Position numbers and translations under genes: made by a program. From positions 1-58,269 of the IMG/VR virus record IMGVR_UViG_3300017728_000008: DNA of 58,269 bases, one strand, 5' to 3'. A model generated the notes under the pieces. The model saw only the letters and a list, made by a program, of their open reading frames with translations, did not search any database and was not told where the DNA came from. This stretch comes from a virus. Its lineage: Duplodnaviria; Caudoviricetes. Below are positions 4,012-52,065 of this stretch, one piece after another (within the stretch, counting starts at the first letter, position 1; the number at the start of each line of letters is the position of its first letter).

Positions 4012-4080
4012 TCTATGGTTTCGTAAATTACTTCTATTTCATTAATATCTAATGTAGTATCTAAAGTCCAATATTCCATA

Positions 4081-4551
4081 TTACCAAAGAGCTACTATGT
4101 TTGTCGCAGTTGTTGTCGCAGTATCTAAAACCTTAGACACCATTATTGGAAGAACTGTTCCCGCTTGAACACCTGTCATAACTACCGCATCTCCTCCTGC
4201 AGTAATTATATCTAAATCTCCTGTTCCACCTACATATAATACAGGACCTATGTTTGGTTGAATGTTATAAACAATAAAGTCATCACCTATTACAAAGAAA
4301 ATATTATCATCTACGAATAATTTGTCATCTTCTATTCCAATAACATTCGCAACTTTATTTGTAGTGGTGTTGTATGCTACTGCTCCTGCAGTTACTTTAC
4401 CTAAAAATGTAGTTCCTGTGGGTGCAAGTAATACAGAAGCACCAATTGCTGCGGTTGTTCCACTTGCTACTTCACCTCCCGGCATGGGAATTACGCTATC
4501 ACTTGGGATAACCGTAATTGCTCTTAACTGTTGTAACTTTTGATATGCCAT
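4081..4551 (-). CDS. virion structural protein (head spike-base/decoration-like) with an inserted beta domain
   Basis: AITVIPSD...LYVGGTGDL...GTVLPIMVSKV...TTATNIVALW pattern typical of small capsid-decorating proteins. Confidence 0.55.
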   Translation of the reverse strand: MAYQKLQQLRAITVIPSDSVIPMPGGEVASGTTAAIGASVLLAPTGTTFLGKVTAGAVAYNTTTNKVANVIGIEDDKLFVDDNIFFVIGDDFIVYNIQPNIGPVLYVGGTGDLDIITAGGDAVVMTGVQAGTVLPIMVSKVLDTATTTATNIVALW

Positions 4552-7237: not shown

Positions 7238-7672
7238 TTGAAAGCAGACTTCCTAAAATATTGGAGAGTAATCCGCCAATATGTAAAAGTAAAATACGGC
7301 ATAACTCAGTCCGAACTTGATGTACTACTTTTTTTAAATTCAGAAAGTTATTTCTCTAAAGATAAGTTTGAAGAGTTCGACCGAATATTGTCTTGGGACG
7401 AGAATAGGTTTGATAAATTATTAAGAGATGGTTGGGTTGAGGTGTTTAGAAAAAGAAAGGGAAAAACAAAAGGACTTTATAATTTGTCGTATAAATCTAA
7501 AAGATTAATCACATCGGTATACAAAAAATTAAATGGCGAAGAGATGCCTACGTCTCCTTCGCAAAATCCTATGTTCTTAAGAAATGTATCTTACACTGAC
7601 CGCAGATATAGAGAAGCTATAAAAAATATGAATGCATTTATTCGACAACAACGACATCACGCTCCTGAATAA
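7238..7672 (+). CDS. winged-helix (MarR-like) DNA-binding protein; TTG start inferred
   Basis: GITQSELDVLLFL...KLLRDGWVEVF...LYNLSYKSKRL pattern; the ORF-track start 7052 lies antisense to another gene. Confidence 0.6.
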   Translation: MKADFLKYWRVIRQYVKVKYGITQSELDVLLFLNSESYFSKDKFEEFDRILSWDENRFDKLLRDGWVEVFRKRKGKTKGLYNLSYKSKRLITSVYKKLNGEEMPTSPSQNPMFLRNVSYTDRRYREAIKNMNAFIRQQRHHAPE

Positions 7673-7895
7673 TAGTAACCGTTTCGTTATTTATAATTAG
7701 TGAATAAGAATTACGAGTGTCATAATAAATTGAATCGTCTTTCTTTAAATGACAAACATCTGTTCCCGGTAGAATAATTTTACCCTTTTGATATCTAAAA
7801 GATTGAGCGTCTGAATTTGAAAGTAATATTCCGCTTTCAGTAGTAATCTGTTCTTCTATCTTTTGTATAATAATATTCTTACCTATTGCTTTCAT
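7638..7895 (-). CDS. groES: co-chaperonin GroES
   Basis: MKAIGKNIII...TTESGILL (mobile loop)...GKIILPG...IIQERDVVVV. Confidence 0.85.
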   Translation of the reverse strand: MKAIGKNIIIQKIEEQITTESGILLSNSDAQSFRYQKGKIILPGTDVCHLKKDDSIYYDTRNSYSLIINNETVTIIQERDVVVVE

Positions 7896-8016: not shown

Positions 8017-8139
8017 TTATTTTTCGTTAGTTTTATTTTTTTCGATTTTGGTTTTTTTTAATTCACCGCTAATCTCATCTTCTTTAAAAATTTTTTTTAA
8101 ATGCTTTTTCATTCCGGGTGTGTATTCTCTACTTCTCAT
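8017..8139 (-). CDS. tiny hypothetical protein (40 aa)
   Basis: ATGA overlap with the groEL stop; MRSREYTPGMKKHLKKIF... Confidence 0.35.
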   Translation of the reverse strand: MRSREYTPGMKKHLKKIFKEDEISGELKKTKIEKNKTNEK

Positions 8140-9749
8140 TTGTTAGAGGTTTCATAACTACGTGCCATTGTCACGATAGCATTAGTTGATAGTATCGTTA
8201 CGGCAACTGAAACTGCATTTTGCAGAGCCTGTCTTGTTACTTTAACAGGGTCTATAACTCCAAGAGTCATTAAGTATCCGTATTTTTCTTTCTTAACATC
8301 ATAACCGTAATTGTTTCCTTTAACATCATGGTATATAGATTTAAAATCTAAACCTGCGTTATCTAAGATTTGAATTAACGGAGCTGACAAAGATTCAGCT
8401 AAAATTGCTAAAGCAATTTTTTTTGATAAATTTTCTTCTTTATTATATCTAATAGCACAAGATTTGCTATGATTAAATAGTGTTAATCCACCACCGGGCA
8501 ATATACCTTCTTCAAGAGCGGAGCGAACGGCACACACCGCATCATCCACTCTGTCATATAATTCTTTTTGTTCAAGGTCAGTATTCCCTCCTACATATAC
8601 CACTCCAATACCTCCTGTTAAAGAAGCAATTCTTTTGTTAAGAAATTCTTTATCATCTTTTCTTTTAGCTTCTTCAAGTGCTTCTTGTAGTTGGGTTATT
8701 CTATCAACAACCTCTTGGTTAGATTCCTTGTCGTCTTTAACGATGACAGTTGAGTCACGTCCAACTATCACCTTGGAACAATGACCCAAGTCGTTGAACT
8801 TAATCAAACTCAAATCATCGCCTGTCTTTTCGCTAAAATATGTAGCACCTACACTTATTGCAATATCCTGCATAAGCTCGTGTTGCCTGTATCCAAAATC
8901 CGGAGGAACTATGTTACAAATTTTTAATCCATTCTTTACTACGTTTGCAGCTAAGGTGTTTATTACATTGGTAGAGCACGGAGCAATAATTAAAAGTTTC
9001 TTACCCTCTTGTATGATTGGTTTTAATATATTTTCAATTTGAAGTATGTTATTAATCTCTCCATCACATACCAAAACGTAAGTGTCTTCAAGGACACATT
9101 CATCTCTTTTTTGGTCGTTTATAAACAAGCCTGAAGAATATCCTCTTTTTATTTTAATACCTTTTGTTGTTTCGTAATAGGTAGCGGAGGTTTTACTATT
9201 TTCAACAGTAACTACACCATCCTTGCCTACACTCTCATATACATCTGCAATAATGTCCCCAATAGTTTTATCATTGTTGGCTGAGATGACTGCAACATCA
9301 CGCAATCTTTTAGCGTCTAATTTTTTTCCTTTTACTTTTAAATCTTTTGATATCAATTTCGTTATGTCCACTAAATGCCTGAGCACTTCGGTTCTATTAA
9401 CTTTGTCGGTTATTAATTCGGTACCTGCATTAACTAAAGCCTCAGCAAGTACAATAGCCGTGGTAGTCCCATCTCCTGCTGAAGATGCGGTTCTGTCGGC
9501 TGCCTCTTTCATCATTCTAACCGCAAGGTTTTCTACCGGGTCTAATAATGAAATTGATTTCGCTACAGTCACACCATCCTTAGTTACCGTAATTCCATGT
9601 AAGTGTTCGGGTGATTCTATTAACACAGTATTACCTCGTGGTCCAAGTGTGGACTTTACTGCGTTTGCTATTTGTTTTATTCCTTGAATTAATTTGTTTC
9701 TTCCCTCATCGGAGAAATGAAGTTCTTTTGGATTGAATCCTTGTTGCAT
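8136..9749 (-). CDS. groEL: chaperonin GroEL
   Basis: AVKSTLGPRG, VTKDGVTVAK, AGDGTTTA, RVDDAVCA, EEGILPGGG, GVIDPVKVTR; no C-terminal GGM tail. Confidence 0.97.
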   Translation of the reverse strand: MQQGFNPKELHFSDEGRNKLIQGIKQIANAVKSTLGPRGNTVLIESPEHLHGITVTKDGVTVAKSISLLDPVENLAVRMMKEAADRTASSAGDGTTTAIVLAEALVNAGTELITDKVNRTEVLRHLVDITKLISKDLKVKGKKLDAKRLRDVAVISANNDKTIGDIIADVYESVGKDGVVTVENSKTSATYYETTKGIKIKRGYSSGLFINDQKRDECVLEDTYVLVCDGEINNILQIENILKPIIQEGKKLLIIAPCSTNVINTLAANVVKNGLKICNIVPPDFGYRQHELMQDIAISVGATYFSEKTGDDLSLIKFNDLGHCSKVIVGRDSTVIVKDDKESNQEVVDRITQLQEALEEAKRKDDKEFLNKRIASLTGGIGVVYVGGNTDLEQKELYDRVDDAVCAVRSALEEGILPGGGLTLFNHSKSCAIRYNKEENLSKKIALAILAESLSAPLIQILDNAGLDFKSIYHDVKGNNYGYDVKKEKYGYLMTLGVIDPVKVTRQALQNAVSVAVTILSTNAIVTMARSYETSNK

Positions 9750-10264: not shown

Positions 10265-10317
10265 AACTAATTGTTTTTACAAAGATAAGAAATTTTTATT
10301 AGATATCTGTAGTCATC

Positions 10318-10545
10318 GGGTCCCCCCCCGCCCTACGTGCACGACCCCGCTACCGGAACCGATTTTTTTTGTTGACCGGGGGTTGTGTTTTTCCTGCTGA
10401 GGTTCTGATTTTTTTGACTTTTTTTCTGTACCCTGTTACCCTCCTGTACCGCTCCGCATCCGCTCCGCTACCTGTATTCGTTTGACGTTACCGGTACCCC
10501 TGTTGACCCCTGTCCCCCTGTGTACCTTCCCCTGTTCCACAGGTA
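10318..10545. repeat. GC/pyrimidine-rich non-coding tract with about 7 CCTGT repeats (putative genome terminus/packaging region)
   Basis: Poly-C and poly-T runs; CCTGT near 10432, 10443, 10471, 10499, 10509, 10517, 10531; CCGCTCCGC twice; sits at the divergence of the two arms. Confidence 0.5.
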
Positions 10546-10561
10546 AAGACAAAAGAGAGAA

Positions 10562-10577
10562 GTGTCTTCAAAGACAC
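10562..10577. repeat. 16-bp palindrome GTGTCTTCAAAGACAC, copy 1
   Basis: Exact match; intergenic. Confidence 0.95.
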
Positions 10578-10704
10578 CAAGAGAGTTCTCTTAACGTCCG
10601 GTCGATGAAAATTAAAGCATAATAAAACACAGGGAAAACACAAGAGTTAAACCATTGAACAAGAAAGAAAACAAACTAAAACGAAACAAAATGAAAAAAA
10701 ATAG

Positions 10705-10734
10705 TTGAAAATCAAATATGTTTTACTATATTTG
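10705..10734 (+). promoter_or_regulatory. early promoter (TTG ... TATATTTG)
   Basis: Bacteroidota -33/-7 arrangement upstream of the first early gene. Confidence 0.6.
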
Positions 10735-10784
10735 AACCATTGATGGACAAGAGATGTACATCAGTTAACTTAAATTACATAAAA

Positions 10785-11420
10785 ATGAGAAATTTAATGC
10801 AAATCGAGGAAGACTTTTTAGCTTCCTCATCAGTAAGAACCGACATCAATTTTGGTTCAATTTTTAACTTACAATCATCAGTTGAGACTGCTAAGAAGTC
10901 AAAATTTGAGAATAGCTTGAAGTTATCGAAGTTGGTGGTTGCTTCTTGTGAGTGGTTCAAAAAACCGGAAACAAAAACTTTACTTGAAGACGAAGGTATC
11001 GAATGGACGAACCAAGAAGTATTTTTTAACAGGGTATTTGGATGGCAAAAATCATTTGGTCACAAGATGTTGAAAGCCGGAAAACTTGAGCCGTCAATCA
11101 TTACGAAGTTCAAGAGAGAGTGTACGAGAGCAGAGAACAACGGAGAAGATACGAACCGAAGTATCCAACAATTATTGAAATTCGCTAAACAAGAGGAAAG
11201 CGGAAACGAAGAAGCATCAGTTTCAACAGAGAAAACATTTGTTACGTTCTCAGTTGCTAAGGATGGTTTGAATGGGGACACCGGTTTCTCGATGAGATTA
11301 ACCGAGAGCGGTATCAAAATTAGTGGAGAGTTAGAAAGCGAAATCGTCAACAACAAAATACAGAGTTTATTTGCTGAGATGAAAGTAATGATAGAGAGAA
11401 TTAATCAAGAAAACCAATAA
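10785..11420 (+). CDS. first early gene; hypothetical, possible HTH-like DNA-binding segment
   Basis: Start revised to MRNLMQ after an A-rich leader; FFNRVFGWQKSFGHKMLKAG helix pair. Confidence 0.65.
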   Translation: MRNLMQIEEDFLASSSVRTDINFGSIFNLQSSVETAKKSKFENSLKLSKLVVASCEWFKKPETKTLLEDEGIEWTNQEVFFNRVFGWQKSFGHKMLKAGKLEPSIITKFKRECTRAENNGEDTNRSIQQLLKFAKQEESGNEEASVSTEKTFVTFSVAKDGLNGDTGFSMRLTESGIKISGELESEIVNNKIQSLFAEMKVMIERINQENQ

Positions 11421-11424
11421 CAAC

Positions 11425-11440
11425 GTGTCTTCGAAGACAC
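11425..11440. repeat. 16-bp palindrome, copy 2 (perfect, GTGTCTTCGAAGACAC)
   Basis: Between stop 11420 and ATG 11455. Confidence 0.95.
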
Positions 11441-11454
11441 CTAAAACAAAAAAA

Positions 11455-12459
11455 ATGAGAGATTTATCAAACAACGGAGTTCAGTTCACAACCTTAAACG
11501 ACACCACAAGACGTGGTCAAGTGAGCGGTTATCATTCTAAACCGGACCCAATTTTCAGAACCAAAGCAACCGCTCAAGACGTTAGCGGTTTAAAATCAGT
11601 TGACCGCAAGAACATTAGTTTTGATGGCACAGAGTACGAGAGCAATTTCAGAATTGGTTTCGAAGTAGAGAAAGCACGTCTTCACAGAGGAGCAGTTGAG
11701 GAGTATCCATTATTTTGTGGGTTCGAAACAGATTCTTCTTGTGGTTATGAAGCGGTTACTCACGTTTTACCTTTGGTAGCGAAGTCAATGTGGAGAACGA
11801 AAGTTTTCAACATGTTTCACCAAGCTAAGAAGATAATTGATGACGAGTACTCACCATCAGATGCTTCTTGTGGTGGTCATATGACTATCTCTGCTGAGGG
11901 TATGACCGGAGCTGAGTTGATGAGTAGAATTAGAAAATTCACACCAATCATCTTATCTATATTTCGTAAGAGGTTAACCAACAGATATTGCAATGGCAAT
12001 CCGCAGTTGTTACCAATGGGAGAGGGAGTTATGTCTTCCGGTTCATCGAAGTATGTTGTCTGTAAAGATACCGGTTTCGGTGTCGAGTTCAGAATACCAT
12101 CGAGAATTACATCTGTTAAACAGATGATAAGACGTTACGAGTTAATGTACATCTTGATGGACTTTGCAGTAAACCAACCGGATGCAACAACGAGAAAGTT
12201 TTACAATGCAGTTAAACCAATCCTGTTGAGTATGTACGAGAAAGACGAAGTGAAAGTTGAAAAGCTAATCACGTTAGCAAGAGATTTCGAGAAGTTCGTC
12301 AAGACCGGTAAAGTTGACCATACTACTGCCGGATGGCTCGAGGGGTGGTGGTCAAGTAGAAACTACTCTTTAGGTAAGTACAGAAATTACTACAAGAGAA
12401 ATTTCAGACCGGATAGCGATGTTGTGCTACAATGGAGAGGTTCAAATCGAATGTTCTAA
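11455..12459 (+). CDS. putative amidoligase (COOH-NH2 ligase type 2)
   Basis: IGFEVEK, ETDSSCG-YEAVT, SCGGHMTIS, KY, GVEFRIP motifs; start revised to MRDLSN. Confidence 0.75.
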   Translation: MRDLSNNGVQFTTLNDTTRRGQVSGYHSKPDPIFRTKATAQDVSGLKSVDRKNISFDGTEYESNFRIGFEVEKARLHRGAVEEYPLFCGFETDSSCGYEAVTHVLPLVAKSMWRTKVFNMFHQAKKIIDDEYSPSDASCGGHMTISAEGMTGAELMSRIRKFTPIILSIFRKRLTNRYCNGNPQLLPMGEGVMSSGSSKYVVCKDTGFGVEFRIPSRITSVKQMIRRYELMYILMDFAVNQPDATTRKFYNAVKPILLSMYEKDEVKVEKLITLARDFEKFVKTGKVDHTTAGWLEGWWSSRNYSLGKYRNYYKRNFRPDSDVVLQWRGSNRMF

Positions 12460-12466
12460 TCCACAT

Positions 12467-12494
12467 AGGGTGGTGTCTTCAAAGACACCATCCT
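12467..12494 (+). other. conserved hairpin AGGGTGGTGTCTT-CA-AAGACACCATCCT (contains palindrome copy 3, 12473-12488)
   Basis: 13-bp stem with one G-U pair, 7 nt after the amidoligase stop; identical to 14748-14775. Confidence 0.9.
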
Positions 12495-12544
12495 CTGTCG
12501 AGAGATGAGTGTCTCTCCTGATGAGTCCAAAAGGACGAAACAGA
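12494..12544 (+). ncRNA. type III hammerhead ribozyme HH1; cleavage predicted after GUC (C12499)
   Basis: Stem III UCUGU/ACAGA; stem I GAGAGA-UGAGUG-UCUCUC; core CUGAUGA 12518-12524; stem II GUCC-AAAA-GGAC; GAAA 12537-12540. Fully canonical core. Confidence 0.95.
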
Positions 12545-12564
12545 AACCTTTAAATAAAAATAAA

Positions 12565-12873
12565 ATGAGAAATTTAATTTTAAACAACACAGACATCAAA
12601 GAATACTTTGCTAACAATAGCTTTGATGAGATGCTCGTAACAACAGACTTAAAAGCATTTAACAATTTAGAAAACCACGATGACTTAGATTGGGAAGAAG
12701 TAGTTGAGTTTGGTGTGAAGAAAGTTGTAACGACTCCTTTTGCACACGAATATTCAACAATAGACTACGACAAAATTACTGCAGTATGCATTCGTTTCGA
12801 CAATGGTGTACACGATGACACAGAGATAGTAATAAATCACAACACAGAAGTTGGACCATTTAATAAAAACTAA
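12565..12873 (+). CDS. hypothetical early protein (start revised to MRNLIL)
   Basis: A-rich leader before ATG 12565; the ORF-track start 12505 lies inside the ribozyme. Confidence 0.7.
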   Translation: MRNLILNNTDIKEYFANNSFDEMLVTTDLKAFNNLENHDDLDWEEVVEFGVKKVVTTPFAHEYSTIDYDKITAVCIRFDNGVHDDTEIVINHNTEVGPFNKN

Positions 12874-12877
12874 AACT

Positions 12878-13042
12878 ATGAAAACACCAAAACTTACATT
12901 AGAAAACTTAAACAAGTACGAAGTTCGTTCACTTGTTTATGCTCTCACGAAAGTTGCTAAAGAAACGACCGATGAGTTAACGAGAGACAATGCTTTAAAT
13001 TTATTAACCAAAATACAAAACGTAAAAAGATATGAAAACTAA
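12878..13042 (+). CDS. hypothetical early protein (start revised to MKTPKL)
   Basis: ATG 4 nt after the upstream stop. Confidence 0.6.
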   Translation: MKTPKLTLENLNKYEVRSLVYALTKVAKETTDELTRDNALNLLTKIQNVKRYEN

Positions 13043-13229
13043 AGTAGAATATTTTATCAGTATGAAAAGTTGCTACGGCAATTACACAAGATTCAAAAAG
13101 GAGTTCAATGACGAACGTCACTTTGAAAATTGGTACGACTTTATGTCCAACAAGGGACATAAGATAATCGGAGTAGAAAAAATCAAATCAAACTTAGACA
13201 GGGTAAAAGATAAATTTGGTTATGTCTAA
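13032..13229 (+). CDS. hypothetical early protein
   Basis: 65-aa ORF, packed. Confidence 0.65.
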   Translation: MKTKVEYFISMKSCYGNYTRFKKEFNDERHFENWYDFMSNKGHKIIGVEKIKSNLDRVKDKFGYV

Positions 13230-13246
13230 ATTTTGTCTTACCTTTG
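13215..13246 (+). promoter_or_regulatory. early promoter TTTG-N20-TACCTTTG
   Basis: Full Bacteroidota -33/-7 consensus. Confidence 0.7.
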
Positions 13247-13289
13247 TTTAAATCAATTATTATTTTAACTTAATTATAAAACTATTATT

Positions 13290-13505
13290 ATGAAACTTTC
13301 AAACATTATTCAAAACACAATCCTTTCAATCGTAACATTATTTGTAATCGCATCAAGCGTAAGACTGCTAATTCATATCGCAGTAACTGAGCAATTTGGT
13401 TTGCCTCAGTTCCTCGCATTCGGATTAGTATTCGGCTTCATCGGTTTCTTATACTCTCTTATCATTGGAATCGTAGTGAACGAGTGGAAGTCATCAATGG
13501 CTTAG
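13290..13505 (+). CDS. small two-TM membrane protein
   Basis: Two hydrophobic helices in 71 aa. Confidence 0.7.
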   Translation: MKLSNIIQNTILSIVTLFVIASSVRLLIHIAVTEQFGLPQFLAFGLVFGFIGFLYSLIIGIVVNEWKSSMA

Positions 13506-13514
13506 ACTCTACTA

Positions 13515-13539
13515 AGGGTGGTGTATCTCACACCATCCT
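13515..13539 (+). other. hairpin AGGGTGGTGT-ATCTC-ACACCATCCT (variant cassette hairpin without the palindrome tip)
   Basis: Same 10-bp basal stem as the hairpins at 12467 and 14748. Confidence 0.85.
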
Positions 13540-13587
13540 CGTATCGAGATGTGTATCTCGACTGATGATACCAAAAGGTTGAAACGG
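13539..13587 (+). ncRNA. type III hammerhead ribozyme HH2; cleavage predicted after GUA (A13543)
   Basis: Stem III UCGU/ACGG; stem I UCGAGAU-GUGU-AUCUCGA; CUGAUGA 13562-13568; stem II (U)ACC-AAAA-GGU(U); GAAA 13581-13584. Confidence 0.87.
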
Positions 13588-13599
13588 AAACAGAGTTCG

Positions 13600-13615
13600 G
13601 TGTCTTCAAAGACAC
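13600..13615. repeat. 16-bp palindrome, copy 4 (extended CGG...CCG)
   Basis: Between HH2 and ATG 13635. Confidence 0.95.
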
Positions 13616-13634
13616 CGCTCACAATTCAAACATT

Positions 13635-14741
13635 ATGTGTATAATTATTATCAAACAAAAAGGCAAAGATGTGCCAAGAGAAGTTCTCAAAACATCTTCC
13701 AAAATCAATCCTCACGGATTAGGTATTGTATGGCTCGACACGTTCGAGGTTACATATCACAAGTCAAAAGAGTTCGGTGTGTTGGATAACGACAGACCCT
13801 ACATCGCTCACTTTAGGTATGCTACAATAGGTAAAGTTTGCAAGGCAAACACACACCCATTTGTATGTGGCAGAAATACAGACGAGTTACTAATGATGAA
13901 CGGAACGATTAAAGGTTATGGTAGTCCAACAATGACAGACACCGAAGACCTTGCAATCAAGTTGGGTTCAACACCAAGGCATGGTTGGAAACAATCGCTA
14001 TCTAAATTCGATGCAAGGTTTGTTTCAATCAACAAAAGAACACGTTCGTTTCAAATCTACAACAAGAACCTGTTCACTATTCGGGATGGAGTTTGGTACT
14101 CCAAGAACAATGTACTGCAAGACAATCTTATGGCGGTCTATGGTACATTAAGAAAAGGCGGTAGCAATTACTATCGGCATCTAAAAAACGAAAAGCATTT
14201 AGGCACCGGAAAGACCACAGATAAATACCCTATGGTTTCTAATGGTATACCTTACTTGCTTGAGAAAAGAGGCGAAGGAGACAATGTGGTGGTTGATGTT
14301 TTTAAAGTCAGCGATATGGCGATGAATAAAATAGATATTCTTGAGGGACATCCGGAGTGGTACCGCAGAAAGAAAGTTGACATAAGTTTAAAAGGAAAAG
14401 TATACCCCTGTTGGATATACTTTAACGAGGGTGCAGAGACAATGTGGAACAAACAGAACCACATAGCAGACTACCAAGCGATACGAACGATTAGTTCGTT
14501 TGGCATAAAACGAACGTATGATACGTTTGAAGACCTTGAGACCACGTGGATTGATGATGTACCTACGTGTACTCAATTAGAGTTTGCAGACTTAGAGGTA
14601 GAGGAGTTCAATAAAGAGAACGAGTCCCCGGTCTGTATAGATTGTTGTCACGACTTAGAGTACGATGGTTTTTCTCATTACCATTGTAATGGTTGTGATG
14701 GTTGGTTCTCCTATAACGAAGTGATGCACTTTCAAGGATAG
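13635..14741 (+). CDS. class II glutamine amidotransferase fused to a gamma-glutamylcyclotransferase-like domain and a C-terminal Zn ribbon
   Basis: N-terminal Met-Cys, NPHGLG, AHFRYAT, NTHPF, MNG; then AVYGTLRKG...IDILEG...YRR; CIDC...CNGC. Confidence 0.85.
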   Translation: MCIIIIKQKGKDVPREVLKTSSKINPHGLGIVWLDTFEVTYHKSKEFGVLDNDRPYIAHFRYATIGKVCKANTHPFVCGRNTDELLMMNGTIKGYGSPTMTDTEDLAIKLGSTPRHGWKQSLSKFDARFVSINKRTRSFQIYNKNLFTIRDGVWYSKNNVLQDNLMAVYGTLRKGGSNYYRHLKNEKHLGTGKTTDKYPMVSNGIPYLLEKRGEGDNVVVDVFKVSDMAMNKIDILEGHPEWYRRKKVDISLKGKVYPCWIYFNEGAETMWNKQNHIADYQAIRTISSFGIKRTYDTFEDLETTWIDDVPTCTQLEFADLEVEEFNKENESPVCIDCCHDLEYDGFSHYHCNGCDGWFSYNEVMHFQG

Positions 14742-14747
14742 CCACAA

Positions 14748-14775
14748 AGGGTGGTGTCTTCAAAGACACCATCCT
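14748..14775 (+). other. conserved hairpin (contains palindrome copy 5, 14754-14769)
   Basis: Identical to 12467-12494; 6 nt after stop 14741. Confidence 0.9.
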
Positions 14776-14825
14776 CTGTTCACGGATGTGTGTCCGTGCT
14801 GATGAAGTCAAAAGACAGAAACAGG
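14775..14825 (+). ncRNA. type III hammerhead ribozyme HH3; cleavage predicted after GUU (U14780)
   Basis: Stem III UCUGU/ACAGG; stem I CACGGA-UGUGUG-UCCGUG; CUGAUGA 14799-14805; stem II (A)GUC-AAAA-GAC(A); GAAA 14818-14821. Confidence 0.88.
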
Positions 14826-14847
14826 AACTTAAATTAAAATTAAAATT

Positions 14848-15051
14848 ATGAAAGCAAATGAATTATTAAAATTTTTAAAAAGTGTAGAACAACAAGTACA
14901 AGGTTACGGAAAAACCTTAGAAGACGTTGAAGTAAATTTCAGAAGAACAGATGACTCTGACATTGAACCAACCGACTCTGTAGGTGTAGACTTATTTGAT
15001 GCAGAGTCAAATAAAATTGTAGAAAGTATAGTATTAATGGGTAAATATTAA
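14848..15051 (+). CDS. hypothetical early protein
   Basis: 67 aa, A-rich leader. Confidence 0.7.
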   Translation: MKANELLKFLKSVEQQVQGYGKTLEDVEVNFRRTDDSDIEPTDSVGVDLFDAESNKIVESIVLMGKY

Positions 15052-15070
15052 ATCAATAAAAATTAAAATT

Positions 15071-15382
15071 ATGAAAATAAAAATTCAACAAAGAAGTATC
15101 TACCACAAATTTGCTGAGGTAGAAATATATGTAGACCCTGTCGCATATGAACATTGGAAACTTGACAATGGTAAGTACGCAAGTCTTCAAGAATTTCTCA
15201 ATGAGAACGAAGACTTATATGTAGATAAGATAGACGAGGCAATGGACAAAACAACATACGAGTTTGGCTTTGGTACAGACTCAGATGCTAATTCACATTA
15301 CAATTCTTCTATGAACGAACCTGAATCAGAATCTGAATGGAGATACGAATGTGACGAATTAAAAACCGGAGGGCATTTATAA
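15071..15382 (+). CDS. hypothetical acidic early protein
   Basis: 103 aa, A-rich leader. Confidence 0.7.
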   Translation: MKIKIQQRSIYHKFAEVEIYVDPVAYEHWKLDNGKYASLQEFLNENEDLYVDKIDEAMDKTTYEFGFGTDSDANSHYNSSMNEPESESEWRYECDELKTGGHL

Positions 15383-15383
15383 T

Positions 15384-15734
15384 ATGGAAACAAAAGTAAT
15401 AGTAACAGACGACAAATTTATTTGGTTGGACATTACTGATGTATTGTCAGTCCACCAAAAAAGAGAATCAAAAGAATCGGTATACTCCTCTTGGATGACG
15501 CACACTCTGTATGTTCTGTATGACGATGGAACCGAAGAGACAATAGAAAGTGTAGACGAAATAGATGAAGCCATTAACCTAAAGCTAAGAGTAGCAATCG
15601 AAGTTGGATACCTACCGAAGTACAACGGAACAAGCAAAGGTGTCTTCAAAGACACTTGGTTTCATAAGGCAGACAAAATTCTAAAGAACGGATATTGGTA
15701 TGCAAAGATAAACGATATAAAGTTTGGGAATTAA
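15384..15734 (+). CDS. hypothetical early protein (contains palindrome copy 6, 15640-15655)
   Basis: 116 aa; the palindrome is read as GVFKDT. Confidence 0.7.
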   Translation: METKVIVTDDKFIWLDITDVLSVHQKRESKESVYSSWMTHTLYVLYDDGTEETIESVDEIDEAINLKLRVAIEVGYLPKYNGTSKGVFKDTWFHKADKILKNGYWYAKINDIKFGN

Positions 15735-15754
15735 ATCTGAATGTACTATATTTG
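15723..15754 (+). promoter_or_regulatory. promoter TTTG-N20-TATATTTG
   Basis: Full Bacteroidota -33/-7 consensus. Confidence 0.7.
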
Positions 15755-15790
15755 TACAAGCAATGAACACTAATAATTAAATTTAATCTT

Positions 15791-15988
15791 ATGAAAAATC
15801 AATTCAACGAAATCTTACCTGCACAAAACGTGCAGGTTTCCACAGGCGAAACTCCCCGCATAGTTGCGTGGTGTGTTGAGGTTAAGTGGGACGACAATTC
15901 AACAGAGAAGTTAGCGGACGTGCCTACTTATGTAAGTAGAAACATAGACGCATGGCTTGATGAGGTTGAGGAATCTAACAAAGAATAG
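15791..15988 (+). CDS. hypothetical protein
   Basis: 65 aa downstream of the promoter. Confidence 0.65.
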   Translation: MKNQFNEILPAQNVQVSTGETPRIVAWCVEVKWDDNSTEKLADVPTYVSRNIDAWLDEVEESNKE

Positions 15989-15990
15989 TT

Positions 15991-16245
15991 ATGGCAACAC
16001 TAATCAAAGCAAGTGGTCAACACGTTGGCGACTTTAAATCTGAAACCTTAGAGCAAATGCAACAGGCAGTAGGAGGATACATTGAACCGGTCTACACAAA
16101 CAACAAGGTAGTTATAGTAGACGAACAAGGTTTGTTAAAAAATTTACCTTTAAACATTGAGGTCTCTGCAATGGTAGGGAAGATGATAGTAGGAGATGCT
16201 ATTGTCTTTACCCCAAAAGAATGGAGAGACCGCAACAAAATTTAA
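15991..16245 (+). CDS. DUF3846-like protein
   Basis: LEQMQQAVGGYIEPV...IVDEQGLLKNLPLN...IVGDAIV. Confidence 0.75.
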   Translation: MATLIKASGQHVGDFKSETLEQMQQAVGGYIEPVYTNNKVVIVDEQGLLKNLPLNIEVSAMVGKMIVGDAIVFTPKEWRDRNKI

Positions 16246-16249
16246 TCTT

Positions 16250-16618
16250 ATGAAATCAATATATTTAAAAGAGGCATCAGCCGAAAAACTCAGACCAACA
16301 CACGAAAAAGGATACATCCAAAGGATGCAAAATCTTGCGGAGAAAGACGAACCTTTTACACTTGCAGTTTTCCAAAACACCGGACGAATTATGACCCGTT
16401 TTGATTATGAGAAAGACCAAGGAAATTTTTGTGGTCACGAACTACAAGAAGACACCAAGTCAATTATTCTTTACATCAATTGCACAATCATAGAGTGTAA
16501 CTTTGATGGGATATGGACTCTACAATTAGGTAGTGATTTATTTTCAAGTGCAGACGTAGTTGCTATGGAAATAAAATTACACAAGTGGTTGTCTAAAGAA
16601 TTAAAAGTACAGAACTAA
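16250..16618 (+). CDS. hypothetical protein (start revised to MKSIYL)
   Basis: ATG 4 nt after the upstream stop. Confidence 0.6.
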   Translation: MKSIYLKEASAEKLRPTHEKGYIQRMQNLAEKDEPFTLAVFQNTGRIMTRFDYEKDQGNFCGHELQEDTKSIILYINCTIIECNFDGIWTLQLGSDLFSSADVVAMEIKLHKWLSKELKVQN

Positions 16619-18386: not shown

Positions 18387-19139
18387 ATGACAAACGAGAT
18401 ACTTGAAAAACTAAAAGACGACAACGAATATTATAATGGTGTCGGACGAAAGTACCTATCGAACTCAGACATAGGTAGCTTATTAAAAAACCCAAAAGAA
18501 TTTGGTGTAAAGAGAGACGACACTCCTGTATTTGCTATGGGAAGATACTTTCATCAATTGTTTCTTGAACCGGACAAAGCAAAGGAATGGGACTTTGTAG
18601 ATGTTTCTTCCCGCAACACCAAGAAATATAAAGAATATGTTGCAGAGTTACAGGCAGATAGTAAAAGACCAAGAGACTTTGCTTTATTGCTAAAAGAAAA
18701 ACGCAATGTAGAATATTGGGTGGAAGCAATGAAAACTAACATAGACTTTTTTGACCGAATATATGCAGACACAAATAGATTTGAAGTTCCGGAAGTAATG
18801 GAACTTGAAGGCGAAATGTGGAAAGGTAAAGCTGATATAGTTGGAGAAGATTATGTATATGATTTAAAAACGACAGGAAACATTAACGACTTTCGTTGGA
18901 ACTTTCGTAAGTATAATTACGATAGTCAAGCATATATATATTCACAATTATTCAGCCGACCTATGATGTTTCTTGTTATAGATAAGACAAGTTATATGAT
19001 GGGTGCCTATACTGTATCTCCTGAATCATTAGAACGAGGCAGACAAAAGGTAGAAAAAGCAGTTGAAGTGTACCGAACATTCTTCGGAGACAATCCGCAA
19101 GAGGATATTAATCAATATTATTTCAATGAAGAGATTTAA
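18387..19139 (+). CDS. RecE/exonuclease VIII-like PD-(D/E)xK nuclease
   Basis: LSNSDI, GRYFH, KGKADIV, VYDLKTT, YDSQAYIY. Confidence 0.85.
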   Translation: MTNEILEKLKDDNEYYNGVGRKYLSNSDIGSLLKNPKEFGVKRDDTPVFAMGRYFHQLFLEPDKAKEWDFVDVSSRNTKKYKEYVAELQADSKRPRDFALLLKEKRNVEYWVEAMKTNIDFFDRIYADTNRFEVPEVMELEGEMWKGKADIVGEDYVYDLKTTGNINDFRWNFRKYNYDSQAYIYSQLFSRPMMFLVIDKTSYMMGAYTVSPESLERGRQKVEKAVEVYRTFFGDNPQEDINQYYFNEEI

Positions 19140-19290
19140 AAAATGGATAGTGTCTTTGAAGACACGTATATTTAACCCTAAACGTATTCACATAGTTGAA
19201 GTTCCAATGGCTTGTGAATCTCGTGCAGAAAAAAGAGTAATCATTTCTGCGACCAAAAAAATATTGGAGCAAATAATAATAATAAATTAA
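19126..19290 (+). CDS. small hypothetical protein (contains palindrome copy 7, 19150-19165)
   Basis: Start revised to MKRFKKW; the palindrome is read as VSLKT. Confidence 0.5.
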   Translation: MKRFKKWIVSLKTRIFNPKRIHIVEVPMACESRAEKRVIISATKKILEQIIIIN

Positions 19291-22639: not shown

Positions 22640-23850
22640 TTGACCAAGCGACAAAAATTTGTAACACACACAGATTTGTTTACCTCACAATGGAGGTAAG
22701 AACAGGAAAGACCTTAACAAGTTTAGGCATAGCAGATAAACTAAAGTGTTCCAATGTTTTGTTTGTAACCAAAAAGAAAGCCATTAGTTCTATTGACTTT
22801 GATTATAAATTACTTAACCCCTCTTTTAAAATTACAATTATTAACTATGAATCTTTGCACAAGGTAGATAGCAAACCAAGTAATAGATTTGATTTTATTG
22901 TGGTTGATGAAGCACATTCTCTTGGTGCATTTCCCAAACCAAGCAAAAGAGCAAAAGATATTAAAACCTTTATTCAAAAAAATAACAATCCCTTTGTTTG
23001 TTTGATGTCGGGAACACCAACACCTGAAAGTTACAGTCAAATGTTTCATCAGGTGTATGGTATTCCTACTAACCCTTTTAAAAAATTTGTTAGCTTCTAT
23101 AAATTTGCACGTCAGTATGTTAATGTTACTCAACGTGTTATAAATTCAATGTACATCAACGACTACTCCAAAGGATTGATTTCTATTTTAGATGAAATGA
23201 AACCTTACACTATTAGCTTTACACAGAAAGAAGCGGGATTCATAAATACCATAGACGAAGAAATAATTATAGTAGAGATGAAGCCAACAACTTATAATGT
23301 TGCTAATAAACTTTCTAAAGACAAAGTAGTAGAAGGCGAGACGCATCTTGTTATGGCGGACACTCCTGCTAAGATGATGCAAAAGCTACACCAAATATAT
23401 TCAGGAACTATTATTTCCGAAAGCGGTACTGCTATTACAATAGATGATTCAAAAGCTACTTACATAAAACAAAAATTTAAAAACAAAAAGATAGCTATCT
23501 TTTATAAATTTAAACAAGAATATAAACTATTAAAAAGTGTCTTTGAAGACACCGTTTGTAACACCATCGAAGAGTTCAGTAACACAGACAAAAGTATTGC
23601 ATTACAAATTGTAAGCGGTCGGGAAGGAATAAGTTTAAAAGAAGCCGAGGCTATTGTTTATTTTAACATAGATTTTTCTGCCACTTCATATTGGCAAAGC
23701 CGTGATAGAATGACAACTAAAGACCGAAGGCATAGCAAGGTTTATTGGGTCTTTGCGAAGAAAGGTATCGAAAAAGAAATATATAAAACCGTCATTAGAA
23801 AAAAGGATTATACGGTAAGACACTTCAAAAGAGATTTATTAACTTTGTAA
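22606..23850 (+). CDS. superfamily 2 (SNF2-like) helicase (contains palindrome copy 8, 23537-23552)
   Basis: FREYQ, VRTGKT, VDEAH, MSGTP, GREGISL, QSRDR. Confidence 0.88.
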   Translation: MFKFREYQTDIIDQATKICNTHRFVYLTMEVRTGKTLTSLGIADKLKCSNVLFVTKKKAISSIDFDYKLLNPSFKITIINYESLHKVDSKPSNRFDFIVVDEAHSLGAFPKPSKRAKDIKTFIQKNNNPFVCLMSGTPTPESYSQMFHQVYGIPTNPFKKFVSFYKFARQYVNVTQRVINSMYINDYSKGLISILDEMKPYTISFTQKEAGFINTIDEEIIIVEMKPTTYNVANKLSKDKVVEGETHLVMADTPAKMMQKLHQIYSGTIISESGTAITIDDSKATYIKQKFKNKKIAIFYKFKQEYKLLKSVFEDTVCNTIEEFSNTDKSIALQIVSGREGISLKEAEAIVYFNIDFSATSYWQSRDRMTTKDRRHSKVYWVFAKKGIEKEIYKTVIRKKDYTVRHFKRDLLTL

Positions 23851-24263: not shown

Positions 24264-24600
24264 CCTTTACTATGAAGTAGATGATTTTTTTGTAAGTAAA
24301 CTAAAAGATTTTCCAAGAAACGTAGGAATAGATATAGCCTCACAGGTAAATGTGTCGTACGAAGACCTACCCACAAGGTCCGGATGGACCCAAACAATAG
24401 GTGGGGTGTGTAACGAAACAAACCCTGCTCTGTTTTTTGAAGTAGAGTATTTGAATCAAGACGAGGAGCCTCCTTTGTTCCTTGATGTAAACCCAATTGA
24501 CTCGGATGATTATCTTGATTACATCCTTGAAAAAAATATATTAAAATCAAAATCAAATGCAAAAAGCCAAACAACTACAAACAAAAGAAGTTTTAGCTAA
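24232..24600 (+). CDS. hypothetical acidic protein
   Basis: 122-aa ORF in operon. Confidence 0.55.
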   Translation: MGVKQRFLEADLYYEVDDFFVSKLKDFPRNVGIDIASQVNVSYEDLPTRSGWTQTIGGVCNETNPALFFEVEYLNQDEEPPLFLDVNPIDSDDYLDYILEKNILKSKSNAKSQTTTNKRSFS

Positions 24601-25078
24601 CATAATAAACCAAACCTTTGACATCAGCATTTCTTCACAATCAAGAAAAAGAGAGCATGTTCAAGGGAGAATGATATATTATAAAATACTTAGAGACTTG
24701 GGGTACGGACTATCATACATTGCAAAAAGCATTGATAAAAACCACGCAACTGTTATACACGGACTAAAACAATTTCAAGATTTATGGGAGGTGGAACCTG
24801 AAGTTAGGTTTGAATACAACTTAATTAGAGACTTGTTCTTTAACCTTGATGTACAGAACACAGAAGATGTATTAAAAAAATCTGCAATCTTTAAACACCT
24901 AAAGTCTTTGGAAAATCAAAATAAAAGTTTAACTTTGGAAGTACAAGCGTTGAAGAATAGTCTAAAAAAAGTACATAGATACAATGATTTAATAGACCTT
25001 CTAAACCAACGCACCTTAAGCAAAGAACAATTAGACAGGACAAGAATTAGATTAAATGCATTTTTAAATGGTCTATAA
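24557..25078 (+). CDS. second DnaA-domain-IV-like protein with a coiled coil
   Basis: SRKREHVQGRMIYYKILR...LSYIAKSIDKNHATVIHG. Confidence 0.75.
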   Translation: MQKAKQLQTKEVLANIINQTFDISISSQSRKREHVQGRMIYYKILRDLGYGLSYIAKSIDKNHATVIHGLKQFQDLWEVEPEVRFEYNLIRDLFFNLDVQNTEDVLKKSAIFKHLKSLENQNKSLTLEVQALKNSLKKVHRYNDLIDLLNQRTLSKEQLDRTRIRLNAFLNGL

Positions 25079-25664: not shown

Positions 25665-26075
25665 ATGAGATTCGAATCTAATAAAGATTTAAAAAGAGAA
25701 AAGAAAGCAATAGAAAAGTTTGTAAGCAAGTTCAAAGGCACCTATAAGAAACTTGGAGAAAACGATGTGGACTACAGGGTCTTTGATGGAAATGGAAAAC
25801 TAATAGCTTACGTTGAGGTAAAGGGAAGATACCGTACAATTAATGATGCATACCCGCTGCCGGTGGCAGCAAGAAAAGTTGTAAAGCTCTGCGATAAAAG
25901 ACTGAACCCTGTAATGATTTGGGCATGTGAAGACGGCATCATATACGGACTTCCATCTGAAATTAAGGGTGAAGTACGATGGGGAGGCAGAAAGCCACGA
26001 GAGGGTGCTTATAATGACGAAGAGCTTATGATATACTATCCCAAACAAAAAGCATTCAGGTATTTTAAATATTAG
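25665..26075 (+). CDS. PD-(D/E)xK nuclease-like protein
   Basis: DVDY...AYVEVKGR. Confidence 0.6.
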   Translation: MRFESNKDLKREKKAIEKFVSKFKGTYKKLGENDVDYRVFDGNGKLIAYVEVKGRYRTINDAYPLPVAARKVVKLCDKRLNPVMIWACEDGIIYGLPSEIKGEVRWGGRKPREGAYNDEELMIYYPKQKAFRYFKY

Positions 26076-50529: not shown

Positions 50530-50564
50530 AAAAGGAGAGGTGTCTTTGAAGACACCTCCCTTTT
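50530..50564 (-). terminator. terminator-like hairpin after the capsid gene, built around palindrome copy 10 (50540-50555)
   Basis: AAAAGGGAGGTGTCTTCAAAGACACCTCTCCTTTT on the - strand. Confidence 0.75.
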
Positions 50565-50574
50565 AAATTCAATA

Positions 50575-52065
50575 TTAGTCTTCGAAAAGGACGAAGTTGT
50601 TCGCACCCATTGTACAAACACATCTTTCTGATAAGAAGTGTACCTCCATAGCATCTAAGCTACTTGTAGCTGCACCACCTGCAGAACCTGTAATCCAAGT
50701 CTTATATCTTCGGTCTTCAGTTTCTGAAGCTCTATATCTTACGTGTAGATAAGGTCTCTTAGCATTTTTGCCAAGAACTTGGTCGTACACAGATGTAGAA
50801 CCTGCAGGAACAAGAAGTCCATTGATTGAACCGGAACCACCGACACCGGCTGCTCCTACTGCTAAACCACCTCTCATTGTAGGGTCGTTTAAGTATTTCC
50901 AATCAGTTTTATAGAAATCATATCCTCTACGGAATCCTGAGAATCCTAAGTTAAGAGCCATTTCCTCATCGTTGTCAAATAGTCCGTAAGACGTACCACC
51001 TCCACCGTAAGAGTTCTGTGCTGCTAACATATCATCAATAGCGAATCCGAAATCTCTATCTAAGAAGATAACATTTTCTTCAATTGCACCTTGAGCATCA
51101 AGTCTTCCGATGATTGCATCGAAATCTCCTAAAGCGTCAGGTACACCACCTGTCCATAGGTTACCTCTGTTTTGAACAGTATAGAATATACCTTCAGAAC
51201 CTTTGTTACCATAGTCAGGGTTGTCAGCCGGAGTAGCCGCACCTGAACCTGCTTCTGCAGGAACCGCTTCTACCATAGCCGTTTCAAGATAGTCATCAAA
51301 TCTTAAACGAGTTTCGTGTTCAGATTTCATGTACCATAAATAACCACTTGCTCCATTTTCAGTAGTAACTTCTACCCATCCAATTTGAGCCATATCAGAA
51401 CCTGATACTGCGTACTTATCTTTGATAATGATTGGCGAATTTTCAAAGATGAAGTCATCAGATTCTAAAGAACCATTCATACCTACTGTACCTTTTTTAA
51501 ATTCTGAACCATAAATAAAGATTGTCACATCTGCATTACCTGCACCTGTTCCTGCCGTTACAAGACCACCTGCTTCATAGAAAGCGACTGTAGCTTGTAT
51601 TGGAGAAACGGTTAAGTCAACCGCAGTTACGATACCTTTATTTTCACCTGAACCATCATTTTGGTGAACCACAACAGTTTGCCCTTCTCTTAAAGCTATA
51701 CCGCCTTGAGCTGAAAAAGGATTCTGTCCTGTGATTACTTGACCTGCAGGACCTGCAGGGTCATTGATTTGAAATGTTGCAACGTCAGCACCTTGTGCTG
51801 CAGCCGTGCCTACTTGAGTATACTTCACGTGAAGTCTACCTTGTTCTGCCCATTTCACTAAATCTGAGTTAGAAGGAAGCTCTGCTCCAACTAATCTTAA
51901 GAACGAACCAATCGTTCTGTTTCCATATCTCTCAAATTCCTTTTCATAAGTATCGGGTAGATACTGATTTAAGAAATCAAAGTTTTGGATGTAGTTTGTT
52001 GCCAACGGCACTTGTTGTGCGGACGGCTGAAGGTCAAAACCGGGACCTGTAAAATTTCCTGCCAT
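50575..52065 (-). CDS. major capsid protein
   Basis: 496 aa after the scaffold and followed by a hairpin terminator; KWAEQGRLH, GYLWY, VHFLSERC; biased codon use. Confidence 0.8.
   Translation of the reverse strand: MAGNFTGPGFDLQPSAQQVPLATNYIQNFDFLNQYLPDTYEKEFERYGNRTIGSFLRLVGAELPSNSDLVKWAEQGRLHVKYTQVGTAAAQGADVATFQINDPAGPAGQVITGQNPFSAQGGIALREGQTVVVHQNDGSGENKGIVTAVDLTVSPIQATVAFYEAGGLVTAGTGAGNADVTIFIYGSEFKKGTVGMNGSLESDDFIFENSPIIIKDKYAVSGSDMAQIGWVEVTTENGASGYLWYMKSEHETRLRFDDYLETAMVEAVPAEAGSGAATPADNPDYGNKGSEGIFYTVQNRGNLWTGGVPDALGDFDAIIGRLDAQGAIEENVIFLDRDFGFAIDDMLAAQNSYGGGGTSYGLFDNDEEMALNLGFSGFRRGYDFYKTDWKYLNDPTMRGGLAVGAAGVGGSGSINGLLVPAGSTSVYDQVLGKNAKRPYLHVRYRASETEDRRYKTWITGSAGGAATSSLDAMEVHFLSERCVCTMGANNFVLFED

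Follow-up and report, generated by a model that had tools for sequence, protein, structure and literature searches.

Type III hammerhead ribozymes with abutting 5' hairpins at gene boundaries of a marine flavobacterial podophage family: a candidate self-processing intercistronic signal

Hammerhead ribozymes located between phage genes are already known, and the role of self-cleaving ribozymes in bacteria and phages is a long-standing question, for which transcript processing has been put forward, though seldom in connection with a defined anatomy. For hammerheads flanking prophage genes, the available portions of one survey propose the processing of long transcripts and report that three tandem sets cleave in vitro (Perreault et al. 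2011, PMC3088659), and the available portions of a further article present DNA-encoded bacterial and phage hammerheads as usually of type I (PMC13725137). Here we describe three units, each consisting of a hairpin that directly abuts the 5' side of a type III hammerhead, in the virus record IMGVR_UViG_3300017728_000008 (Caudoviricetes; 58,269 bases, 34.8% G+C, nearly complete at 96%), which was analyzed over its whole length and is referred to below as the window. These hammerheads resemble those of PMC3088659, several of which, in the same portions of that survey, lie in intergenic regions, on either side of a single gene or of a short block of genes. The abutting 5' hairpin present in the window phage is not described in those portions, where candidates mispaired at the core-adjacent stem II pair (10.1/11.1) were rejected, whereas 28 of 72 distinct members of the present family are mispaired; also, the hammerheads of this phage family are all of type III, unlike the usual type I of PMC13725137. 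In the literature searched, supplementary files aside, no account was found of a hairpin abutting phage hammerheads or of hammerheads in flavobacterial phages, nor of the fixed hairpin-ribozyme architecture, the use of a lineage-specific palindrome, a type III family of this size or recurrent 10.1/11.1 variants, and the 16-mer palindrome core discussed below (GTGTCTTNNAAGACAC) was found in neither orientation.

Three other systems share part of this organization. In phage T7, RNase III cuts inside intercistronic hairpins of the polycistronic transcript, and the 3' stem-loop stabilises the upstream message; in the window, the cut would be made by the adjoining ribozyme and not by a host protein within the hairpin, with predicted 2',3'-cyclic phosphate and 5'-OH ends, and the process would be independent of host RNases. 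In synthetic insulators of the RiboJ type, a hammerhead removes upstream RNA and an extra hairpin 3' of the ribozyme serves the downstream ribosome site. The constant downstream leader is alike in both cases, but the hairpin of the window lies 5' of the ribozyme, would serve the upstream message, and is natural and conserved. Cluster A mycobacteriophages have stoperators, lineage-specific asymmetric DNA sites that are bound by a known repressor and occur in ~10-30 copies, mostly in short intergenic regions; the window also holds a repeated lineage-specific motif, yet this one is palindromic and at least its ribozyme-adjacent copies act as RNA hairpins, as their sense-strand G.U pairs show.

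The three units of the window lie on the + strand with zero spacer between hairpin and hammerhead (HH1 to HH3; R1 denotes a covariance model described below):

12468 to 12493, + strand: hairpin 1 (GGGTGGTGTCTTCAAAGACACCATCC), 26 nt, 11 pairs including one G.U, UCAA loop, palindrome core at the tip (sequence, minimum free energy (MFE) fold, hairpin scan)
12494 to 12544, + strand: HH1, type III, canonical core, predicted cleavage after C12499 (RF00008 47.6 bits, R1 75.3 bits)
13516 to 13538, + strand: hairpin 2 (GGGTGGTGT-ATCTC-ACACCATCC), 23 nt, 9 pairs, AUCUC loop, without the palindrome tip (sequence, hairpin scan, MFE fold)
13539 to 13587, + strand: HH2, type III variant with U10.1.U11.1, predicted cleavage after A13543 (descriptor scan, R1 62.4 bits)
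14749 to 14774, + strand: hairpin 3, 26 nt, identical to hairpin 1 (sequence, hairpin scan, MFE fold)
14775 to 14825, + strand: HH3, type III variant with A10.1.A11.1, predicted cleavage after U14780 (descriptor scan, R1 68.0 bits)

Hairpin 1 begins 8 nt past a stop codon and runs up to the first base of stem III; hairpin 3 begins 7 nt past a stop codon and also abuts stem III, the next ATG after HH3 being at 14848. Both carry GTGTCTTCAAAGACAC at their tip, as a preliminary description of this region had noted, together with the lack of the palindrome in the hairpin of HH2. The outer stem of hairpin 2 (GGGTGGTGT/ACACCATCC) is nevertheless that of hairpins 1 and 3, only the loop being different. 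None of the three hairpins has a T tail on the + strand or was reported by the terminator scan, and they do not qualify as intrinsic terminators.

All three ribozymes hold CUGAUGA and GAAA, with GUC, GUA and GUU as the respective cleavage sites, a stem I of 7 pairs, a stem II of 3-4 pairs and an open-ended stem III of 4-5 pairs, which makes them type III. HH1 falls just under the curated cut-off of Rfam Hammerhead_3 (E 2e-7; cut-off 48.5 bits), and nothing in the window reaches any Rfam gathering score. HH2 and HH3 have no match to a hammerhead family in Rfam even at E up to 10, since the 10.1/11.1 pair, G-C in HH1, is U.U in HH2 and A.A in HH3.

In order to place these ribozymes among relatives, 55 related loci were retrieved from phage contigs, mostly of ~60 kb, with the protein encoded at 13635-14741, a fused glutamine amidotransferase-like and gamma-glutamyl cyclotransferase-like protein (GATase-GGCT). 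Leaving aside the copies of the window itself, a descriptor scan for the core, a stem I of at least 4 pairs and stems II and III of at least 3 pairs each, in which upstream sequence was ignored, returned 83 hammerheads, of which 75 are distinct. Stems I-III covary: 327 alignment cells changed on both sides of a pair, compared to 94 +/- 16 in shuffles, and across the 72 distinct relatives both-side changes occur in 14 of 18 pairs, with 97.5% of cells paired, a percentage that is partly by construction given that the sequences had been selected for pairing. R1, built from the alignment of the relatives and partly from HH1-HH3 themselves, found exactly the three listed matches in the window with filters off (next best, 13.1 bits), 78 matches in the 55 loci, all on the gene strand, and 58 matches in 28 of 36 near-complete relatives, with 1-5 per genome confined to one region. 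The strong covariation and the 78 of 78 matches on the gene strand make the ribozymes look selected. The other three stem II pairs are fully paired and covarying in the 28 members with a non-Watson-Crick 10.1/11.1 combination. On this basis HH2 and HH3 were accepted as hammerheads, and the recurrence of the mispairs speaks for functional variants and against decay.

Among the 75 hammerheads (alignment A1), cleavage-site base and 10.1/11.1 class go together. C17 with G-C occurs in 38, A17 with U.U in 21 and A17 with G-C in 8, followed by the rarer classes U17 with A.A (5), C17 with A.A (2) and U17 with U.U (1); C17 never occurs with U.U. As the sequences are related, this correlation may reflect descent instead of a structural rule. 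Behind the GATase-GGCT gene, locus L038 (4146-4196) carries a hammerhead with CCGAUGA for CUGAUGA that still scores 64.5 bits, and at the same junction L053 (~4066-4085) retains a remnant with core, stem II and GAAAC and without stem I, where the palindrome of that genome comes after and not before the ribozyme.

A hairpin is the constant partner of the hammerheads. It ends exactly at the first base of stem III in 57 of the 75 distinct hammerheads; in 47 of them a hairpin of 8 bp or more is found no farther than 2 nt from stem III, compared to 201 of 5000 random positions (4%), and with at least 6 bp the counts are 63 of 75 and 833 of 5000. Stop codon and hairpin are separated by a median of 8 nt (73 of 75 measurable), and the hammerhead by a median of 21 nt from the ATG of the next open reading frame (ORF) of at least 40 amino acids (aa; 72 of 75 measurable), giving the order stop codon, ~8 nt, hairpin, 0 nt, hammerhead, ~21 nt, ATG. 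In the arms of the hairpins, G.T pairs outnumber A.C pairs (56 vs 16). Across 13 related whole genomes, the palindrome copies next to a hammerhead are lengthened by a median of 6 pairs, compared to 1 in other intergenic copies and 0 in coding copies, an extension that falls from a mean of 4.92 to 1.69 pairs when read on the opposite strand. Both asymmetries indicate that the hammerhead-abutting hairpin acts as RNA on the sense strand.

In contrast to the hairpin, the palindrome sequence is variable. Its core, with up to 2 substitutions, is found in the hairpins of 44 of the 75 hammerheads, and ~28 of 75 have unrelated GC-rich hairpins at the same place and with the same geometry, so that any stable hairpin seems to serve and the partner that stays constant is the hairpin and not the palindrome. 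The preliminary description had the palindrome coupled to every ribozyme. Adjacency is indeed real, conserved and far beyond chance, and lineages use their own palindromes for it, but the unrelated hairpins remove the 'every' and bring, in part, the kind of case, hammerheads without the motif in relatives, that was to count against the coupling. Also, of the 152 palindrome copies in the 13 genomes only 13 abut a hammerhead and 139 are hammerhead-free. The expected co-occurrence across genomes did not emerge either: palindrome and hammerhead are both present in 21 of 36 genomes, with hammerhead only in 7, palindrome only in 6 and neither in 2 (16, 7, 5 and 2 without the six genomes chosen via the palindrome itself), and the two are unassociated at this level. 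The palindrome is thus not ribozyme-specific, and its sequence as such would be unneeded for ribozyme function.

Gene boundaries are where the palindrome mostly occurs. Intergenic copies number 93 of 152, though 84-96% of each genome is called coding; most of them lie 0-30 nt past stop codons, and the asymmetric centre is oriented with transcription in 50 and against it in 15, both distributions resting on a crude gene caller. A T-rich tail follows 16 of 70 stand-alone intergenic copies. In the window, the 18-mer with up to 3 mismatches has 12 sites, compared to 0.00 expected from shuffles, and the 16-mer core has 11 exact sites, its reversed control having 0; the core is kept in relatives whose GATase-GGCT proteins are only ~50% identical.

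Other lineages have palindromes of their own. Five of the seven hammerhead-only genomes (G012, G014, G022, G023, G030) were scanned together with G013, which has 3 near-copies of the window motif, and 6 of 6 possess their own repeated palindrome (e.g. TCCGTTATAACGGA, GTGTACANNTGTACAC, GGGGGTTCAAACCCCC). The hammerhead hairpins use the own-genome palindrome exactly in G012, G014 and G030 and as a near-copy in G023 and G013, and are only similar to it in G022; since five of the six build their hammerhead hairpins from their own motif, coupling follows whichever palindrome a phage uses. These motifs reach 5-11 copies in the six genomes (loci L079-L096), and several palindrome types share the centre TTCAAA while differing in their arms (GTGTC, GGGGG, GTCTC). 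Copies within genes behave alike. The motif of the helicase gene shifts by ~10 codons between genomes (window 23537-23552, G020 ~16997, G013 ~54134) and the peptide fits the motif of each genome, VFEDT in G020 and LFEET in G013, which has a different house motif, so that the nucleotide motif itself is under selection. In-gene palindromes were also considered as 18-nt (6-codon) mobile insertions; this was ruled out, as orthologues align gap-free and the motif encodes conserved peptides. The change of genome-wide palindromes as a set between lineages is a separate puzzle worth following.

Given this anatomy, we read each unit, with moderate confidence, as a self-processing intercistronic signal on a polycistronic early transcript, the hairpin of which would cap the upstream message. 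The hairpin would fold first and the hammerhead next, cutting 5-8 nt beyond the hairpin base. The upstream message would then end in a long stem-loop with a very short tail and a 2',3'-cyclic phosphate, an end that should resist 3' exonucleases, and the downstream message would start with a 5'-OH and a folded ribozyme remnant, a constant ~66 nt before the AUG whatever lay upstream. With no spacer between them, the hairpin could also stack on stem III, which is short and open, and upstream coding sequence would be kept from pairing with that stem. The hairpin would usually be made by lengthening the genome-wide 'house' palindrome of the phage, which marks many ribozyme-free gene boundaries as well. 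The anatomy of the units and its conservation, the pairing of the RNA on the sense strand and the fact that most copies of the palindrome stand apart from ribozymes are observed; cleavage in vivo, end protection and stacking are inferred.

The junction behind the GATase-GGCT gene is informative in this respect. Among the 55 loci it carries hairpin and hammerhead in 18, the hairpin alone in 24 and neither in 11, the sequence being too short in 2, and from the first two counts the hairpin looks like an older or wider element and the ribozyme like an add-on to an existing boundary hairpin. Among four cultured or named relatives, a hammerhead was found only in Flavobacterium phage elemoF (NC_055853.1, 17867-17919, - strand). 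This single copy, situated between divergent genes and 15 nt ahead of the gene that opens its block, has no upstream cistron and no abutting hairpin (n=1). Both observations support the boundary-signal reading, as does the transcript processing proposed for the prophage hammerheads in the available portions of PMC3088659. A recurrent hairpin-less class of hammerheads also exists, preceded by a conserved ...CTAAGCAAGATGTAAAACTGC-like sequence (L024 2147, L025 2024, L030 2002, L032/L033/L064 1702), and two hammerhead hairpins of L072 (2317-2369 and 4124-4176) carry the same element with its loop in opposite orientation (GTCTACAAAGAC vs GTCTTTGTAGAC).

If the proposal is correct, synthetic ribozyme insulators would have a natural counterpart here, and the phage a route to stable single-gene messages that does not depend on the host. 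The family is large and rigid in layout, as judged by the 78 model matches in 55 loci and the presence in 28 of 36 near-complete genomes, and it contains its own internal controls, as one and the same junction may hold or lack the ribozyme, hairpins may hold or lack the palindrome, and cores are canonical or of the 10.1/11.1-variant kind. Cultured relatives of the phage family exist on Flavobacterium, Cellulophaga and Maribacter hosts.

The other elements of the region around HH2 are:

11455 to 12459, + strand: 334-aa gene, the cistron preceding HH1 (ORF; no Pfam or PHROG match)
13215 to 13246, + strand: promoter-like block (TTTG, 20 nt, TAccTTTG) upstream of the GATase-GGCT gene, conserved in an 11-sequence alignment
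13290 to 13505, + strand: small ORF of 71 aa, part of a ~330-nt insertion relative to 10 relatives
13599 to 13616, + strand: palindrome copy in the 5' untranslated region (UTR) of the GATase-GGCT gene (core 13600-13615), kept in relatives independently of hammerheads
13635 to 14741, + strand: GATase-GGCT gene, 368 aa

The palindrome core at 13600-13615 does start 12 nt past HH2, as previously noted, but it does not form part of HH2. In 10 aligned relatives the promoter-like block is directly followed by a GAGTTC-palindrome-CTCACAAA block and then by the GATase-GGCT start codon, with no hammerhead in that upstream stretch in any of the 10. The window keeps both blocks (13215-13246 and ~13590-13634), split by the ~330-nt insertion, which consists of the 71-aa ORF, hairpin 2 and HH2 and ends at the 3' end of the hammerhead. 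In L024 and L025 a homologous small ORF is located elsewhere, directly after the hammerhead trailing the 334-aa gene; a full palindrome hairpin comes next, and then a hammerhead whose stem II has the same U.U. Small ORF, hairpin and hammerhead hence move as one unit, as indicated by their joint relocation and by the sharp boundary at the 3' edge of the hammerhead. The hairpin-hammerhead unit accordingly belongs to the upstream gene, and the palindrome behind HH2 is a separate conserved 5'-UTR element of the GATase-GGCT gene. The promoter-like block (TTTG, ~20 nt, TAnnTTTG) resembles the Bacteroidota -33/-7 consensus; the pattern has 8 matches in the window vs 4.08 expected, which is weak by itself. 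The GATase-GGCT protein matches Pfam GGACT (E 2e-20), with matches to GATase_6 and GATase_4 under their cut-offs, and homologues of the 334-aa gene in relatives commonly have a hammerhead 23-128 nt past the end of the tblastn match.

Several observations weigh against the self-processing reading. HH2 and HH3, having no Watson-Crick 10.1/11.1 pair, are possibly slow or conditional, and U10.1 does not offer the purine N7 to which metal binding is usually assigned. Nearest-neighbour folding fails to recover stem III, as is usual for hammerheads. Four RNA or possibly-RNA sequencing runs yielded, over 10500-16500, nine short low-depth contig pieces that are uninformative either way on cleavage, with no ends at the predicted cleavage sites and no joints at a coverage too sparse to judge. 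Hairpins 1 and 3 share 26 of 26 nt while the ribozyme stems differ, which is more than plain stability requires, and all palindrome copies of a genome switch together between lineages; identity within the genome and concerted switching suggest an additional sequence-specific constraint, e.g. a sequence-specific reader, protein or other. A related difficulty concerns stacking: stem III averages 5.67 pairs without an abutting hairpin vs 4.9 with one (p 0.045, the sequences being not independent and some cases misclassified), and a difference this slight lends stacking little support.

The constraint on the palindrome could reflect a protein-gated module, in which a phage or host factor binds the house palindrome, as RNA hairpin or as DNA, and modulates cleavage or product stability. 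In favor of such gating are the 11 exact core sites of the window and their retention alongside divergent GATase-GGCT proteins, the switching of whole genomes with the hammerhead hairpins following, the maintenance of the motif within genes (VFEDT vs LFEET in the helicase) and one copy at a conserved place between the promoter-like block and the start codon. We nonetheless consider it unlikely, given that ~28 of 75 hammerheads have unrelated hairpins, that the hairpin of HH2 itself lacks the core, that 13 of 152 palindromes adjoin a hammerhead and that the hairpins of L072 carry one element in opposite loop orientations. The sole candidate binder, a 173-aa protein (24557-25078) with a DnaA C-terminal-like helix-turn-helix (29.6 bits; cut-off 31.5) present in all 12 compared genomes, shows in its conserved helix no clean change tracking palindrome type and was rejected as palindrome reader, and profile searches of the window proteins identified no palindrome-binding protein. 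A DNA-bound protein pausing the polymerase while the ribozyme folds, as earlier suggested, would not fit HH1 and HH3, where the palindrome is transcribed before the ribozyme; at the copy behind HH2, such a roadblock would hold the polymerase with the 3' strand of stem III still inside it. A more elaborate version, a two-part RNA punctuation in which a co-evolving sequence-specific factor reads the house palindrome, zero-spaced hammerheads are switched or timed by it and the 10.1/11.1 variants depend on the factor or on ions, we regard as speculative and distinctly unlikely; if true, the palindrome would mark gene boundaries, one promoter-proximal site and even positions within genes.

At the other extreme, the hairpin could be purely structural, stacking coaxially on the short stem III and insulating it from upstream sequence with no protection of the message. 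Strict zero spacing (57 of 75) and a stem III of just 3-7 pairs, slightly longer where no hairpin abuts, speak for this possibility, to which we also assign a low probability: the difference in stem III is marginal, the hairpin stands alone at 24 of 55 GATase-GGCT junctions and therefore has a function of its own, and both the elemoF hammerhead and the recurrent ...aaactgc-preceded class manage without it. Mere adjacency, with palindromes as general boundary, terminator or operator elements and hammerheads sharing the same short intergenic spaces, would account for the 139 hammerhead-free copies and the lack of genome-level association, short spacers bringing the elements close in any case. 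It appears very unlikely in view of the exact zero spacing, the lengthening of hammerhead-abutting copies (median, 6 pairs), which is confined to the sense strand, and the invariable order of hairpin and then ribozyme, the single palindrome among 152 within 40 nt downstream of a hammerhead being the 13600 copy of the window, of separate origin. Finally, gene cassettes that are exchanged between genomes could end, at their 3' side, in the house palindrome with or without hammerhead, which would serve in recombination somewhat as the hairpin-forming attC sites of integron cassettes do. The small ORF with hairpin and HH2 at different positions in the window and in L024/L025, its sharp edge at the hammerhead 3' end and the many palindromes just past stop codons would agree with this; but one relocation was seen, no recombinase is linked to the sites and the in-gene copies encode conserved peptides and are not insertions, all of which makes this alternative highly improbable.

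Two further candidates were dropped. A conformational switch was considered because, in the MFE folds of the window, the 3 nt that precede each hairpin are paired to the 5' strand of stem III; among 55 relatives with an abutting hairpin, 24 show at least 3 such pairs vs 19.0 +/- 2.5 when permuted, with 13 of 500 permutations as high, and the excess disappears once 4 or more pairs are required. Hairpin promoters of the N4 kind, read by a giant virion RNA polymerase, were set aside, as the 2338-aa ORF matches a virion structural protein family and none of the ORFs scanned, with the 3187-aa ORF outside the scan, matches an RNA polymerase.

The 12 palindrome copies of the window occupy intercistronic, promoter-proximal, terminator-core and in-frame genic positions. 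In addition to those listed above they are:

9082 to 9097: near-copy with 1 mismatch within the chaperonin gene, encoding the conserved peptide CVLEDT
10562 to 10577: copy in a ~1-kb mostly non-coding region between divergent gene blocks
11425 to 11440: copy between two cistrons without hammerhead, 4 nt past a stop codon and 14 nt before an ATG
15640 to 15655: copy in frame within an ORF, encoding GVFKDT
19150 to 19165: copy just past the exonuclease-like gene 18387-19139, centre in opposite orientation
23537 to 23552: copy in frame within the helicase gene, encoding SVFEDT
31867 to 31882: copy within the 3187-aa ORF
50535 to 50560: bidirectional terminator-like hairpin around the palindrome, downstream of the structural-protein gene 50575-52065 (terminator scan; PHROG 'virion structural protein')
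57715 to 57730: copy 186 nt past a stop codon and 84 nt ahead of a start codon, a spacing that several relatives share exactly

The hairpin at 50535-50560, with an 11-pair stem and a T-rich tail on both strands, qualifies as an intrinsic terminator, in agreement with the preliminary description, which had the motif as the core of the terminator of that gene. Several copies lie only 14-20 nt before a start codon, leaving no room for a promoter.

The phage belongs to a family of marine flavobacterial podophages. Its capsid-like structural protein has 46% identity to Flavobacterium phages of the genus Elemovirus, 51% to Maribacter phage Panino and 40% to Cellulophaga phage phi38:1, and seawater and marine viral metagenomes (13 studies) hold DNA near-identical to the window, for which reasons a marine member of the Flavobacteriia is the probable host. 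When 11000-16000 was compared at the nucleotide level to the phage collection, a single weak match resulted. The + strand genes at ~10.7-26 kb include a helicase, a primase-like and an exonuclease-like gene, and the structural genes lie on the - strand. At 10706-10745 a promoter-like sequence (TTG ... TAtaTTTG) ends only ~8 nt before the ATG at 10743, which would make the first message of the + strand block nearly leaderless. The chaperonin gene that holds the palindrome near-copy encodes a GroEL-like protein (8136-9749; Cpn60_TCP1, E 2.5e-59) and is accompanied by a GroES-like co-chaperonin gene (7638-7895; Cpn10, E 1.3e-9). The 3187-aa ORF (26072-35635) contains acidic repeat-like segments (EVSVETVTETNEVSLKTPTEEVVVDEAEVSD), and part of this region is missing from the closest compared genome. 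Directly before the palindrome at 10562, a G+C-rich repeat-like stretch (10290-10560) with many CCCCTGT / CTGTACC-type words could represent an origin or a non-coding RNA.

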